Origin: Deltaproteobacteria bacterium
GTDB taxonomy: Bacteria; Desulfobacterota; GWC2-55-46; DRQE01
NCBI GenBank assembly: GCA_024278765.1
Contig: JAJRSM010000044.1
Location: 5,972-69,971 of the forward strand
DNA: 64,000 bases
Direction: 5' to 3'
Below are positions 2,248 through 42,058 of the stretch, piece after piece; within the stretch, counting starts at the first letter, position 1; each line of letters opens with the position of its first letter. The translations under genes were made by a program, and so were the position numbers. The notes beneath the pieces were generated by a model. It worked only from the letters and a program-made list of their open reading frames with translations. It was not told the DNA's origin and ran no database searches.

Positions 2248-2276
2248 TTGACATATGTCCTTTAATTCCTTATAAT
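2248..2276 (+). promoter_or_regulatory. Near-consensus sigma70 promoter, TTGACA-17 nt-TATAAT, upstream of gmd.
   Basis: TTGACA lies at 2248-2253 and TATAAT at 2271-2276, separated by a 17-nt spacer; this was read directly from the sequence. Confidence 0.6.
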
Positions 2277-2383
2277 TCCTAGGGTTATCCATGTAATATT
2301 GTCTATAATCTGCCTTAGGAGGCTGCTCAGAGCGACTTTTAAGGACCTTTTGCTTTTTTTTGTCATTCGCCAAGGAGTTTTCT

Positions 2384-3523
2384 ATGAAGCGGGCTTTGAT
2401 CACCGGTATTACCGGGCAGGACGGCAGTTATCTGGCCGAGTTTCTCCTTAGCAAGGGCTATGAGGTGCATGGCATTATAAGGCGGGCAAGCTCCTTTAAT
2501 ACCGGTCGGATCGACCATATCTACGAAGATCCTCAACATCACGGTAAAAGGCTTTTTCTCCATTACGGAGACCTGACAGACTCAAGCCAGATAGATAACC
2601 TTATATATAATATCGCCCCAGATGAGGTCTATAATCTCGCGGCGCAGAGTCACGTGCGAGTAAGCTTTGATATGCCCGAGTATACCGCAGATGCCTCGGG
2701 GCTCGGTACGACCAGGTTGCTGGAGGCAATTAGACGCAGCGGTGGTAAGGCGCGTTTTTATCAGGCCTCAAGCTCTGAGATGTTTGGTGCAGCCCTTCCT
2801 CCTCAGAACGAGACTACGCCTTTCCGGCCCAGAAGCCCGTATGCCGCAGCAAAACTCTACGCATACTGGATGACGGTGAATTACCGTGATGGTTACGACA
2901 TCTTTGCCTGTAACGGTATTCTCTTCAATCACGAATCGCCAAGGCGCGGCGAGACCTTTGTTACAAGGAAGATTACGCGAGCCGTTGCCGCTATTCTTAG
3001 TGGTAAGCAAGAGCGACTTTATCTCGGCAACCTTGACGCAAAGCGTGACTGGGGCTTTGCCCCTGAATATGTTGAATGCCAGTGGCTGATGCTTCAGCAG
3101 GACAAGCCCGGTGATTATGCCGTTGGTACGGGCCGGAGCCATACGGTAAGAGAGTTTCTGGAGGCGGCTTTTGAGGCTGTAGACATCGAGTTGGAATGGA
3201 AGGGTCATGGCACTGATGAGAAGGGGTATATAAAATCGGTCGAGCTGCCAGAGGGCTGCAAGGTAGGTCTTAAGGCGGGAGATCTTTTAATAGAAATTGA
3301 TGCGCGTTATTATAGGCCTACCGAGGTTAATGCCCTTCAGGCTGATATAACGAAGGTGAAAAAAACGCTTGGGTGGTCGCCAAAGGTGAGCTTTAAAGAG
3401 CTTGTAATGATTATGGTGGACTCAGACCTGCTTCAGGCAGGGCTCGAGCCTACGGGCAGGGCAGAGAATATCCTAAAGGACAAGGGTATTCTATGGACCA
3501 AAAACATGTTGACGGTTAGGTGA
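2384..3523 (+). CDS. gmd: GDP-mannose 4,6-dehydratase.
   Basis: [22 protein letters not shown] and [17 protein letters not shown] are highly conserved Gmd motifs; the likely start is the ATG at 2384. Confidence 0.92.
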
Positions 3524-4464
3524 TGGTGGGGTTTTGGGCTGATAAGAAGGTTGTAGTCACAGGTGGTGCGGGTTTTTTAGGCTCTTTTGTCGTCGAAAAA
3601 CTAAAGGCACGTGGCTGCGCTAATATCTTCGTACCACGTAGTAAAGATTACGATCTAGTAGATATGGGGGCGGTAAGGCGGCTCTACGCAGATACAACAC
3701 CGGATATTGTTATTCATCTCGCTGCCGTTGTCGGAGGGATCGGGGCTAATAAGGCCAACCCGGGTAAATTTTATTATGATAACCTGATGATGGGCACGCA
3801 GATGATCGAGGTAGGTCGGCAGGTGGGACTAGGTAAATTCGTCGCCATCGGGACTATCTGTGCCTACCCGAAGTTAACACCTGTGCCCTTTAAAGAGAAA
3901 GATCTATGGAACGGCTACCCCGAAGAAACCAACGCTCCGTACGGGTTGGCTAAGAAGATGCTGCTGGTGCAGAGTCAAGCTTACCGGGCGCAATACGGCT
4001 TTAACTCTATATACCTGCTACCGGTAAATTTGTATGGCCCGGGAGATAACTTTGACGTGGAGTCTTCGCATGTGATCCCAGCGTTAATCAGGAAATGCAT
4101 AGAGGCCAAAGAGAGCGGAGCCGGTAGTATAACGGTCTGGGGCACGGGCAGGCCAACGCGTGAATTCTTGTATGTTGAGGACGCGGCAGAGGGGATCTTG
4201 CTTGCCGCAGAGAAGTATAATAAGCCAGAGCCGGTAAATCTTGGTTCTAGCTGTGAGATATCTATTGATAATCTAGTTGAACTAATCGCCGCAAAGACTT
4301 GTTTTAAAGGTGAAATTATTTGGGATTCAGCAAAGCCTGATGGCCAGCCCAGAAGGCTGCTTGATACATCAAAGGCAGAGCTTGAGTTTGGTTTTAAGGC
4401 CGCTACGGGCCTTCGAGAGGGCCTTGATGCAACAATAGCGTGGTTTAAGGAAGAGGGACGTTGA
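3520..4464 (+). CDS. fcl: GDP-L-fucose synthase (GDP-4-keto-6-deoxymannose 3,5-epimerase/4-reductase).
   Basis: The SDR Rossmann motif [12 protein letters not shown], a length of about 314 aa and its position immediately after gmd support the call. Confidence 0.88.
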
Positions 4465-40161: not shown

Positions 40162-40859
40162 AGGCCGTTCTGCTCGCCGCAGGGAAGGGGACAAGGCTGC
40201 GCCCATTGACCGATTCAGTGCCAAAGTGTCTGATCCCTATCGGCGGCGAGCCAATGCTCACCATATGGTTGCGTTTGCTGAAGAAACATGGTATAGAAGA
40301 AGTCCTTATTAATACGCATTATCACGCAGAGCGAGTAGATGATTTTCTGGCCAGTGATGATTCCGGGGTCAAGGTCAAGGCCGTATACGAAGAAGAGCTA
40401 CTTGGTAGCGCCGGTACGGTACTGGCAAATAGAGATTTTTTCAGAGATGAAAAAGATTTTTTTATTATCTATGCCGACAACCTGACCAATATGAATATTA
40501 CTAAGATGGCAAAATTTCACCGGTGCAATAACAAAAAAGGCCTTCTTACTATGGGGCTGCACAGGGCTACGAACCCGCAGGCCTGCGGCATAGCAGGCAC
40601 TGACAAGGACGGTCTGATAACGTCTTTTGTAGAGAAGCCGGAGCACCCTGAATCTAACCTTGCAAATGCCGGTGTATACGTCGCTGGCCAAGAGATCTTC
40701 GACTATATACCGCAGAGAAAAGGGGTTGTGGACCTTGGTTTTGATCTTCTGCCGATTTTGGTCAATAAGATGTATGGCTATGAAATAGAAGAATACCTTT
40801 TGGATATCGGTACGTTAGATAACTACGAACGCGCTAACAAAGAGTGGAGCAACGAATGA
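40152..40859 (+). CDS. Sugar-1-phosphate nucleotidyltransferase (HddC-like heptose-1-P guanylyltransferase candidate).
   Basis: [34 protein letters not shown] is the family's N-terminal motif. Confidence 0.75.
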   Translation: [235 protein letters not shown]

Positions 40860-41449
40860 GTAAAGATTTTTTCGACCACTATATAGAAGAAGAACAGAGG
40901 CTGCTTGGCGAGATCTCGGAGGCGGAGTTTAATAAGGTGATAGAGCTCTTTCAGACTGCTTATGAAGATGGCAGGCAGGTCTTTGTCTTTGGCAATGGCG
41001 GCAGCGGCTCGACGGCCTCGCACTTTGCCTGCGATATCAATAAAGGGGTCTCCTACGGCCATGACAAACGCTTTAAGGTTATCTGCCTCAATGACAATAT
41101 AGCGACAATACTCGCCTATGCCAATGACACCTCGTATAATGATATTTTTGTTGAGCAGCTTAAGAACTTCATGCAGCCTGGAGATCTGGTCTTTGGAATA
41201 TCCGGCAGTGGAAACTCAGAGAATGTCCTGCGTGCTGTGGAGTATGGTAATGGTAACAGTGCGATAACATTAGGTTTTACAGGCTTTTCGGGTGGCAGGC
41301 TTGGTAAGGTTGCCGAATTATCTATAAATGTGGCCTCAGAAGATATGCAGAAGATCGAGGATATACACCTAATTATGACCCATATGATAATGCAGAGTTT
41401 CTGTAAGAAACTAGGCCTGCCTTGTAAAAAAGACGGTGAAAAGAGCTAA
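40844..41449 (+). CDS. gmhA: SIS-domain sedoheptulose-7-phosphate isomerase.
   Basis: VFVFGNGGSGSTASHFACD and a length of about 200 aa match GmhA. Confidence 0.85.
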   Translation: MEQRMSKDFFDHYIEEEQRLLGEISEAEFNKVIELFQTAYEDGRQVFVFGNGGSGSTASHFACDINKGVSYGHDKRFKVICLNDNIATILAYANDTSYNDIFVEQLKNFMQPGDLVFGISGSGNSENVLRAVEYGNGNSAITLGFTGFSGGRLGKVAELSINVASEDMQKIEDIHLIMTHMIMQSFCKKLGLPCKKDGEKS

Positions 41450-41452
41450 GTT

Positions 41453-42058
41453 GTGAATGAATGCACTATATATTTGATCCGTCACGGCGAGATACTTTCT
41501 AATAAAGACGACGTCTATGCCGGCTGGAGTGGTGAAGAACTTACTGAGCAGGGGCGAGCCTCTGCCCAGAACCTCGGTAAAGAGGCCAAAGACTGGAGTA
41601 TTGAGGCTATCTATACCAGCCCTATCAGAAGGGCCGTTCAGACGGCAGAAATAATCAATAGCTATCTCGGTAAAGAACTCTTTACCGAGGATGGTTTGAA
41701 AGAGATAAAGATGGGGCCTTGGGAAGGGCTGCGTATCGGTGATGTTGAGGAGCGTTTCCCTGAAGATTTCAAAACATGGCAAACAAGGCCAGGCGATTTA
41801 AGGGTAGAGGGCAGAGAGACACTGGAAGAGTTGCAAAGAAGAACTGTAACTGCGGTGATGAAGATATTTAAAGCCCACAGCGGTGCTGTCCTTGCCGTAA
41901 CCCATGTAGCTATAATTCGTGTACTTTTTCTTTACTATAACTACAGGCCTTTAAACGATTATAAGAAGATAGATGTCCCAAACCTCTCGGTCTTTAAACT
42001 CACCTTATCATCCGGATCCGGCGGGTCCGGGAAGAGCGCGAGTTTTACTCCTTTATAA
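41453..42058 (+). CDS. Histidine phosphatase (phosphoglycerate mutase-like) family protein.
   Basis: IYLIRHGE is the catalytic His motif. Confidence 0.75.
   Translation: MNECTIYLIRHGEILSNKDDVYAGWSGEELTEQGRASAQNLGKEAKDWSIEAIYTSPIRRAVQTAEIINSYLGKELFTEDGLKEIKMGPWEGLRIGDVEERFPEDFKTWQTRPGDLRVEGRETLEELQRRTVTAVMKIFKAHSGAVLAVTHVAIIRVLFLYYNYRPLNDYKKIDVPNLSVFKLTLSSGSGGSGKSASFTPL

Follow-up and report, generated by a model that had tools for sequence, protein, structure and literature searches.

We analyzed a 64,000-nucleotide stretch of contig JAJRSM010000044.1 (hereafter, the window), which belongs to an uncultured Thermodesulfobacteriota metagenome-assembled genome (MAG), and focused on a block of 35 plus-strand open reading frames (ORFs) at positions 2384 to 42058. 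Every one of these ORFs received a glycan-related assignment from Pfam and NCBIfam profile scans; none (0 of 35) fell outside glycan metabolism, and the single ORF without a direct match is that at 9533 to 11209. Because relatives keep some parts of the block and swap others, we interpret it as a variable island of exchangeable modules between a permease gene and a dif-like site. Given the module swapping, the low GC content of the processing genes, and a diderm host, we favor, with moderate confidence, the reading that this island, which differs between strains, directs the synthesis of a single complex and branched surface polysaccharide, most likely a lipopolysaccharide (LPS) O-antigen of the Wzx/Wzy type. 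Neither mosaic O-antigen-type loci of large size nor GT2/GT-C decoration is new in kind. A four-gene cassette within the block, built around a fused NeuB-cupin protein, is a more useful lead than the whole locus: it is widespread, has a fixed gene partnership, and has no function in the literature that we searched.

The original prediction, made from the sequence without database searches, had described about 35 consecutive plus-strand glycan genes at 2248 to 42058 as a single dense surface-glycan locus. Profile annotation, which assigned all 35 ORFs and gave none of them an unrelated function, bears this description out; the predicted start at 2248 is that of a promoter-like site, and the predicted span is the region that varies between relatives. 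Throughout, "above cut-off" refers to the curated model cut-off of Pfam or NCBIfam, and "below" denotes a best match that falls under it. Scores above cut-off were obtained for Gmd, the glucose-1-phosphate cytidylyltransferase, the CDP-glucose 4,6-dehydratase, RfbH, WecB, and the polyprenyl glycosylphosphotransferase, and also for WecG/TagA, Wzy_C, Polysacc_synt_3, PMT_2 and GT2 (two proteins each), GT4, Radical_SAM (two proteins, one with SPASM and the other with a B12-binding domain), and two methyltransferases. The assignments below cut-off are Fcl, NeuB/PseI, the PseF-like cytidylyltransferase, HddA, HddC/ManC-like, and GmhA, and one methyltransferase (23197) is marginal. All genes of the block named below lie on the plus strand.

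Donor pathways and exchangeable modules

The GDP-fucose, CDP-3,6-dideoxyhexose, and heptose-type genes that had been predicted are all present by profile matches; the list of four nucleotide-sugar pathways to which they belonged had missed UDP-ManNAc synthesis, as well as a TagB/BFO_1060-like transferase. Nor had the prediction noted that an E3 reductase and a GtrA-type flippase are lacking, or that modules are swapped between strains. The block opens with gmd, for GDP-mannose 4,6-dehydratase (2384 to 3523; TIGR01472 553 bits, cut-off 415), and an fcl-like GDP-L-fucose synthase gene (3523 to 4464; NF047922 291 bits over the full length, below 500), both with starts set by exact look-up. The CDP-sugar genes are rfbF, for glucose-1-phosphate cytidylyltransferase (15960 to 16751; TIGR02623 423 bits, cut-off 300); an SDR gene with generic SDR matches (16703 to 17623), a candidate CDP-paratose synthase (4-reductase) by its pathway position; rfbG, for CDP-glucose 4,6-dehydratase (17620 to 18738; TIGR02622 470 bits, cut-off 278); rfbH, for the E1 3-dehydrase (18735 to 20051; NF011936 618 bits, cut-off 423); and the gene for a CDP-tyvelose 2-epimerase (20054 to 21082). 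The closest match of this epimerase is PDB 9RL0, the TyvE of Thermodesulfatator atlanticus (E=4e-156), followed by 1orr (E=4e-141). Since the last enzyme is a CDP-tyvelose 2-epimerase, the CDP route would run through RfbF, RfbG, RfbH, a 4-reductase (probably the SDR at 16703), and TyvE, which is the pathway order laid out for CDP-paratose and CDP-tyvelose (PMC7851689). The T. atlanticus homologue also epimerizes CDP-Glc and CDP-Man reversibly in vitro (PMC13098431). For UDP-ManNAc, the block holds wecB, for a non-hydrolysing UDP-GlcNAc 2-epimerase (35396 to 36532; TIGR00236 501 bits, cut-off 210; NeuC model 106 bits, below 236), which pairs with a GT26 WecG/TagA-type ManNAc(A) transferase (33565 to 34344; PF03808 183 bits; best matches TarA and EpsA).

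The right end of the block is a heptose-type module (38042 to 42058) in which profiles identify an SDR, an HddA-like kinase, an NDP-transferase, a GmhA-like isomerase, and a histidine phosphatase. The pathway to GDP-D-glycero-alpha-D-manno-heptose, known from Aneurinibacillus S-layer glycans and Campylobacter capsules, consists of GmhA, HddA, GmhB, and HddC. The module in the window resembles it in combining a SIS isomerase with a GHMP kinase and a nucleotidyltransferase within one operon, and adds the SDR. It differs in that these three enzymes are below the equivalog cut-offs (GmhA 107 bits against 209, HddA 166 against 600, and HddC 92 against 300, with 145 for a ManC-like model) and in that the GmhB HAD phosphatase is absent from the module, its slot being filled by a His_Phos_1 protein (169 bits; cobC/PGM-like; 41453 to 42058). 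This histidine phosphatase is kept in the place of GmhB in three related loci (L006, L160, and the distant L010).

Comparison with relatives resolves the block into parts of different constancy. A locus from a hydrothermal-vent metagenome (L160) keeps the window's gene order from the TagB-like gene to xer, with protein identities of 59 to 93%, and its DNA is 81% identical over 29.9 to 38.07 kb. Within this shared order, L160 carries a GT9 gene of the heptosyltransferase family (L160:3952-5136) where the window carries a GT4 gene (28776 to 29930; profile match), and DNA homology breaks at 28740 to 29932, which makes this a swappable slot; a further B12 radical-SAM gene of L160 occupies the position of a 192-bp gap in the window (27848 to 28039). 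The run for a B12 radical-SAM enzyme, a Zn-ADH/GFO fusion, GT26, an SDR, WecB, and the polyprenyl glycosylphosphotransferase (PGT) constitutes the core kept in L160. By comparison, a JGI contig whose GlnD is 95% identical (L006) keeps only the five-gene heptose module (76 to 93%); it has a priming transferase that is not orthologous, and upstream it shares no genes with the window. A distant MAG (L010, GlnD 51%) has the heptose module beside xer. At the left, fcl, the GFO gene, and the NeuB-cupin gene are 82 to 92% identical in L005, with only 48% for the counterpart of the first GT-C gene. Another locus (L163) shares the MarC gene and the permease gene (90%), and its homology ends at window position 2177; since dnaE then follows its permease gene (L163:4657-7986), the left junction is not conserved, reflecting insertion or rearrangement near the terminus. 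Finally, a distant 395-kb contig (L122) holds, in one run at 8131 to 16790, a cytidylyltransferase, GFO, NeuB-cupin, an orphan-type GT-C, a methyltransferase, PMT_2, and Wzy_C. This run parallels window positions 6185 to 15890, with identities of 36% for the near-orphan GT-C, 43% for the methyltransferase at 14925, and 49% for the third GT-C (PMT_2).

The locus is bounded on the right by a dif-like XerC/D site (42169 to 42196; ATGTCGCATAATGAATATTATGTCAAGT) in a 315-bp convergent gap. It agrees at 21 of 28 positions with the E. coli dif consensus, with one match found and zero expected. In 13 related loci, the dif-like core recurs beside xer although the sequence around it is otherwise unrelated. 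GC skew changes sign and gene orientations converge at this site: 37 ORFs in a row lie on the plus strand (8 to 42058), and the following 15 in a row lie on the minus strand. The site is therefore probably the replication terminus. The adjoining xerC/D gene (42374-43285), considered as an "integrase" of a mobile element, proved to be the housekeeping XerC/D of a MutS-AmiC-GlnD-Xer block that forms the right flank and is conserved across Geobacterales and relatives. Because the Xer protein is of this housekeeping kind, and the window contains no second dif-like copy and no tRNA, the block is not a dif-flanked integrative mobile element exploiting Xer (IMEX).

Because the block abuts a terminus-like dif site with a skew flip, the 37-gene co-directional run is not by itself evidence of one operon. 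The co-directionality noted in the original prediction is thus real, and it is weak evidence of a single transcription unit, being at least partly a matter of replichore orientation. The promoter-like site at 2248 to 2276 (+), a consensus match only, reads TTGACA-17-TATAAT (12 of 12 positions) and lies 108 nt before the ATG of gmd, which is preceded by an AAGGAG ribosome-binding site. It is the only perfect site of its kind and stands at the start of the block; a second promoter-like site occurs at 5970, and no convincing internal terminators were found in the block. Genes overlap or nearly abut at 9572 to 14882, over most of 15960 to 21837, and at 28776 to 36532. The GC content is 0.34 to 0.37 in the wzx, Wzy_C, and radical-SAM genes, compared to a background of 0.46. 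An Rfam scan of the window gave no match.

The NeuB-cupin cassette

The cassette comprises genes for a GFO/IDH/MocA oxidoreductase (6185 to 7288; profile match), a NeuB-family synthase fused to a D-lyxose/D-mannose-isomerase-like cupin (7321 to 8868; identified by profiles, PDB, and a structure model), a HAD phosphatase (8837 to 9505; profile match), and a CMP-sugar synthetase (28040 to 28765; profile match to CTP_transf_3). The first three are contiguous in the window (6185 to 9505), and the cytidylyltransferase gene lies 19 kb off. To count co-occurrence, we used the 22 loci, from metagenomes and genomes, that extend 3 kb or more to either side. The oxidoreductase gene is directly upstream of the NeuB-cupin gene in 21 of these loci, and the cytidylyltransferase and phosphatase genes co-occur with it in 18 and 16, respectively. 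The four-gene cassette is kept in many unrelated environmental genomes (loci L001-L004 and L088-L159), and NeuB-cupin homologues accounted for 7,951 of the 8,000 scored candidates in one search, with identities of about 60% among the top matches listed. The cytidylyltransferase of the window is 60% identical to the copy in the L003 cassette. We examined the neighborhood of the cassette in 14 non-redundant loci, where 126 neighboring ORFs include 15 class I methyltransferases, 5 radical-SAM proteins, 3 B12-binding domains, 4 sulfotransferases, and 5 GT2s. This richness in glycan-type genes indicates that the cassette typically resides in surface-glycan loci. The radical-SAM/SPASM proteins of L003 and L122 were considered as orthologues of the one in the window and are not orthologous; that of L003 adjoins a sulfatase gene, which suggests that it matures the sulfatase. 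Our literature searches on the cassette returned no relevant paper and no characterized member.

The pathway had been predicted to be of the CMP-nonulosonate type, an assignment that the profile scores do not sustain. The NeuB-cupin protein scores 131 bits against the NeuB model (cut-off 400) and 125 bits against PseI (cut-off 340), and the CMP-sugar synthetase, which is above the Pfam cut-off for CTP_transf_3 (70.5 bits), reaches 143 bits against PseF (cut-off 206). No NeuC and no aminotransferase or acetyltransferase of the Pse/Leg type, that is, none of the upstream enzymes of Neu, Pse, or Leg synthesis, occurs among the ORFs of the block, and the tailoring enzymes of Pse or Leg are lacking as well. 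The sole DegT-family protein of the block is RfbH. Given these absences, and given that the 2-epimerase is WecB, the ulosonate is predicted to be amino-free.

The nearest solved structure of the NeuB-cupin protein is 3g8r (E=1e-89 by sequence), which is itself uncharacterized. An AlphaFold model computed from 37 sequences (mean pLDDT 86) superposes on 3g8r with 46% identity and a TM-score of 0.94 (normalized to the 3g8r chain). In the model, the cupin domain resembles the D-lyxose/D-mannose isomerases 2y0o and 7nzo-q (target-normalized TM-score of about 0.68), and its metal ligands H411, H413, E418, and H452 are invariant across 29 family members. CMP-Kdo is made by KdsD, KdsA, KdsC, and KdsB, and the Bacteroides Kdn-9-phosphate synthase and phosphatase follow the same plan of isomerase, phosphoenolpyruvate (PEP)-condensing synthase, HAD phosphatase, and cytidylyltransferase. 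The cassette shares these four roles, in the form of an isomerase-like cupin, a NeuB-family PEP-condensing domain, a HAD phosphatase, and CTP_transf_3. It departs from the known pathways in that a lyxose-isomerase-like cupin is fused to the synthase, a linked GFO/IDH/MocA oxidoreductase is added, and the synthase belongs to the 3g8r subfamily rather than to KdsA. By this analogy, we infer a logic like that of CMP-Kdo and CMP-Kdn synthesis (phosphatase, isomerase, PEP condensation, and CMP activation) with one redox step added, leading to an amino-free 3-deoxy-ulosonic acid. The product is probably a Kdn/Kdo-like acidic sugar.

A candidate transferase for this sugar is the TagB/TagF-like GT-B protein encoded beside the cytidylyltransferase gene, at 26438 to 27847 (PF04464), which resembles the BFO_1060 family (NF046086 73.7 bits, below 200). 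A homologue of this gene stands immediately after the NeuB-cupin gene in L003 and L004. Members of the BFO_1060 family in Tannerella transfer Pse or Leg derivatives onto ManNAcA (PMC5420450).

Assembly, decoration, and tailoring enzymes

The priming transferase, Wzx-like flippase, GT4, GT26, and two radical-SAM enzymes that had been predicted were all recovered by profiles. The priming enzyme is a polyprenyl glycosylphosphotransferase of the WbaP/WcaJ class (36563 to 37981; TIGR03025 418 bits, cut-off 296; Bac_transf 228 bits), and the flippase is a Wzx-like MOP protein with 9 transmembrane (TM) segments (24008 to 25306; GC 0.34), identified by a weak match to PF13440 (Polysacc_synt_3; 31.7 bits, cut-off 23).

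The protein predicted to be a WaaL-like ligase (11181 to 12791) does belong to the Wzy_C family (PF04932 50.9 bits, cut-off 31.7; AHNDF, containing the AHN motif of the family) and is the sole polymerase or ligase candidate in the block; the ligase role does not follow, a polymerase or O-oligosaccharyltransferase (O-OTase) being equally compatible with the data. It has no sequence match in the PDB at E=10, and no relatives were found in JGI metagenomes. A word-indexed search returned nothing, not even the protein's own record, and is thus unreliable and no evidence of absence: either the gene was not called in that collection or the index fails on hydrophobic sequence. Neighboring proteins of the same contig are in the collection. 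An AlphaFold model from the single sequence was unusable (pLDDT 52, pTM 0.34).

Three PMT/ArnT-like GT-C enzymes had been predicted, and this number stands, with two recognized by Pfam and one by remote homology. GT-C no. 1 is PMT_2/ArnT-like with about 9 TM segments (4461 to 5969; PF13231 64.8 bits, cut-off 26.1), and GT-C no. 3 is a PMT_2 protein (12785 to 14140; PF13231 46.2 bits, cut-off 26.1). GT-C no. 2 (9572 to 11209, within ORF 9533-11209; 545 amino acids [aa], about 10 TM segments) is a highly divergent near-orphan. A direct scan gave it no Pfam match, a word-indexed search of 5.8 billion proteins returned only the protein itself, and a search of GTDB representatives returned nothing. 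When 1.84 billion cluster representatives were scanned in full with HMMER, 88 matched, of which 6 are full-length relatives at 30 to 36% identity. When the query and its hits were scanned in turn, PMT_2 was found in 33 of 40 sequences and PMT in 11 of 40; this remote homology places the near-orphan with PMT_2/PMT and upholds the count of three. In the alignment, Asp55 is invariant and Glu56 is near-invariant, at the place where ArnT/PMT-type enzymes carry an acidic motif in their first loop. A 573-aa protein of L001 without a Pfam match, tried as a further relative, is not related to the GT-C profile.

Two small GT2s accompany the GT-C enzymes, and the GT2 plus GT-C decoration layer of the original prediction is plausible from this gene content. 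Both resemble polyprenyl-phosphate sugar synthases; one (14142 to 14882; soluble, with NCBIfam matches below cut-off) follows GT-C no. 3 after a 1-nt gap, and the other (21082 to 21837; profile matches) overlaps the stop codon of the epimerase gene by 1 nt. Neither protein (246 and 251 aa) has a TM segment, and their best matches, AglJ, PpgS, Dol-P-hexose transferase, and ArnC, all fall below cut-off (50 to 88 bits against cut-offs of 325 to 529). The one-base overlap with the TyvE stop codon suggests that the GT2 at 21082 may make a lipid-linked dideoxyhexose. Three-component periplasmic systems, including one of a polyprenyl-phosphoribose synthase, a MATE protein, and GT136, are the subject of Kelly et al. 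2024 (PMC11127046), who surveyed the known examples and added to them. The window shares with the GtrA/B/C, ArnC/ArnT, and GT136 systems small GT2s adjacent to or near GT-C genes, with one of its GT2s coupled to a nucleotide-sugar pathway. It differs from them in having no small flippase gene, GT2s without the C-terminal TM helices of GtrB and ArnC, three GT-C enzymes for two GT2s, and one GT-C that is a near-orphan.

Tailoring genes are spread over the block. Of the three methyltransferases predicted, two are clear class I S-adenosylmethionine (SAM) methyltransferases (14925 to 15890 and 25686 to 26438; profile matches); the third is a weak methyltransferase-like ORF (23197 to 23799) that is marginal for Methyltransf_11 (23.5 bits against 21.2) and below cut-off for Methyltransf_23. 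The two radical-SAM genes encode a radical-SAM/SPASM enzyme (21884 to 23026; GC 0.36; profile match) and a B12-binding radical-SAM enzyme (29896 to 31407; profile match; 90% identical in L160). The 722-aa fusion of a Zn-ADH-like and a GFO/IDH/MocA oxidoreductase (31404 to 33572; profile match) is 87% identical in L160; its best matches are inositol dehydrogenases, and its gene is translationally coupled to that of the B12 radical-SAM enzyme. An SDR nucleotide-sugar epimerase or dehydratase is encoded at 34341 to 35402 (profile match).

To the left of the block, genes for a MarC-family protein (251-883, +) and an amino-acid permease (894-2192, +), both with coordinates set by exact look-up, are unrelated to glycans. 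A BamB-like protein and an AMIN-domain amidase encoded nearby indicate that the host has an outer membrane. Its GlnD is 94% identical to that of CAZUFI010000006, and the next relatives are at about 50%; the host is an uncultured vent or sediment bacterium. At the far end of the window (59400 to 63979, minus strand) lies an ATP-citrate-lyase-like pair, in which a 430-aa subunit has citrate-binding and ATP-grasp domains and its unusually long partner (903 aa) has CoA-ligase and citrate-synthase-like parts, followed by a fragment of a monomeric isocitrate dehydrogenase. These genes suggest a reverse-TCA autotroph, and the host lineage is probably chemolithoautotrophic.

A proposed single branched polysaccharide and competing explanations

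The scheme that we propose for the block starts from five cytoplasmic donors: GDP-L-fucose, CDP-paratose/tyvelose, UDP-ManNAc, an NDP-heptose-type sugar, and a CMP-activated, putatively amino-free 3-deoxy-ulosonic acid. The gene assignments, the conservation and swapping of modules, and the genomic position are observed; how the steps follow one another, which donor serves which transferase, and what finally accepts the glycan we infer as follows. The WbaP-class transferase would start the repeat unit on undecaprenyl phosphate; GT26 (for ManNAc), GT4, and the TagB-like transferase (for the ulosonate) would extend it; and the methyltransferases, radical-SAM enzymes, and oxidoreductases would tailor it, with the core run conserved in L160 probably building and tailoring the reducing-end part. 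Wzx would flip the unit, and the Wzy_C protein would polymerize or transfer it. In addition, the two GT2s may load sugars, one of them probably a dideoxyhexose, onto polyprenyl phosphate, from which the three GT-C enzymes would add periplasmic side branches. The counts are coherent, with five special donors set against four cytoplasmic transferases (PGT, GT26, GT4, and TagB-like), two GT2s, and three GT-C enzymes. This donor/transferase count, together with the presence of one priming transferase and one Wzx, fits a single branched repeat unit with periplasmic side sugars, an arrangement like that of the three-component systems (PMC11127046).

The nearest known counterparts are the rfb clusters of Salmonella enterica group D and Yersinia pseudotuberculosis, which share with the window RfbF, RfbG, RfbH, the tyvelose 2-epimerase, a WbaP-class transferase, Wzx, and a Wzy_C-family protein, along with low-GC processing genes and gene replacement from strain to strain inside conserved flanks. 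The window locus is about two to four times larger (35 genes) and lacks an E3 reductase and Wzz within the window. It also has the three GT-C enzymes, the radical-SAM enzymes, and the ulosonate cassette embedded in it, and it lies beside dif, whereas the enterobacterial O-antigen locus lies between galF and gnd.

Several observations weigh against an O-antigen made by one integrated locus. Chain-length regulators such as Wzz, a second Wzy_C, and lipid A-core genes are all missing from the window, and the Wzy_C protein could be an O-OTase. The block yielded no GtrA, MATE, or ArnEF-type protein to flip lipid-linked monosaccharides; a GtrA-type membrane protein (about 120 aa) would exceed every ORF in its intergenic gaps, and it encodes only one MOP protein. 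RfbH would need an E3 reductase (RfbI/DdhD/AscD), and no ferredoxin-reductase-type ORF occurs in the 64-kb window; this enzyme may be encoded elsewhere in the genome. The heptose and ulosonate modules are under equivalog cut-offs, and several gaps of 170 to 380 bp, with uneven GC content, permit several transcription units. In L122, moreover, the cassette is grouped with two GT-C genes, the methyltransferase gene, and the Wzy_C gene, and these could form a system of their own.

The original prediction had left the choice between an O-antigen, an S-layer glycan, and protein glycosylation open, and the evidence leans to a polysaccharide. In protein O-glycosylation or S-layer glycan synthesis, the Wzy_C protein would serve as a PglL/PilO-type OTase and transfer a Wzx-flipped oligosaccharide to periplasmic or surface proteins, and the PMT-like GT-C enzymes would act on proteins or on the glycan. 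The Wzy_C family covers PglL and PilO as well as WaaL, only one Wzy_C gene and no Wzz gene occur in the window, and PMT_2 is also a protein O-mannosyltransferase family. The sugars (fucose, dideoxyhexose, ManNAc, methyl groups, and ulosonic acid) and the BFO_1060-like transferase further recall the O-glycan of Tannerella forsythia, in which the BFO_1060 family caps a ManNAcA residue; the locus for that glycan shares a TagB-like BFO_1060-family transferase by a CMP-sugar synthetase, ManNAc, fucose, dideoxyhexose, and methylation (PMC5420450). The window differs from it in having no Pse/Leg pathway, a partial match to the BFO_1060 model, and a host in another phylum. PglL-type enzymes carry accessory domains beside the Wzy_C core, whereas the Wzy_C protein here has no other Pfam family at E up to 0.001. 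There is no S-layer or target-protein gene nearby, and entire modules are exchanged between nearly identical strains, as is more usual in O-antigen or capsule loci. Overall, we consider a protein-linked glycan unlikely.

A similarly small chance attaches to two or more independent glycoconjugate pathways lying side by side in a plastic terminus region, with no single product; for example, an O-unit core (28.8 to 42 kb) might adjoin a ulosonate/GT-C/Wzy_C system (6.2 to 15.9 kb) serving the lipid A-core or another polymer. The contiguous set in L122 (cassette, GT-C, methyltransferase, PMT_2, and Wzy_C) fits this division, as do the right-hand modules that persist in L160 and L006 without the left half, the promoter-like site at 5970, the long gaps, and the heterogeneous GC content, and replichore would explain the shared gene orientation. 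However, the block encodes a single priming transferase and a single Wzx, its Leloir transferases are too few for two glycans, and the cytidylyltransferase and candidate transferase genes are interleaved with other modules 19 kb from the synthase gene, which points to functional integration. A bolder form of the same division, which we regard as speculative, makes the left half (GFO, NeuB-cupin, HAD, near-orphan GT-C, Wzy_C, PMT_2, GT2, and methyltransferase, plus the displaced cytidylyltransferase and TagB-like genes), which recurs in the distant L122, a glycosylation system in its own right, so far undescribed, that would center on a new CMP-activated Kdn/Kdo-like sugar. Equally tentative is its corollary that a free ketose is isomerized and the resulting aldose condensed with PEP, both on one fused enzyme. 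Still less probable is a capsule or exopolysaccharide instead of a lipid A-linked O-antigen: the priming transferase best matches the EPS_sugtrans and WcaJ models, and Wzx/Wzy chemistry is common to group 1 capsules, but no Wza, Wzc, or Wzb (OPX/PCP) gene occurs among the 52 main ORFs of the window.

Read as an island for one branched surface polysaccharide, the locus extends O-antigen-type diversity to an uncultured lineage and provides a case of gene-by-gene swapping beside dif. With its three GT-C enzymes and two GT2s, it also lends itself to studying how side branches are added in the periplasm, where a dideoxyhexose may be among the donors. The product of the NeuB-cupin cassette, once defined, would be a new activated sugar for bacterial glycobiology and would allow thousands of metagenomic genes to be annotated.

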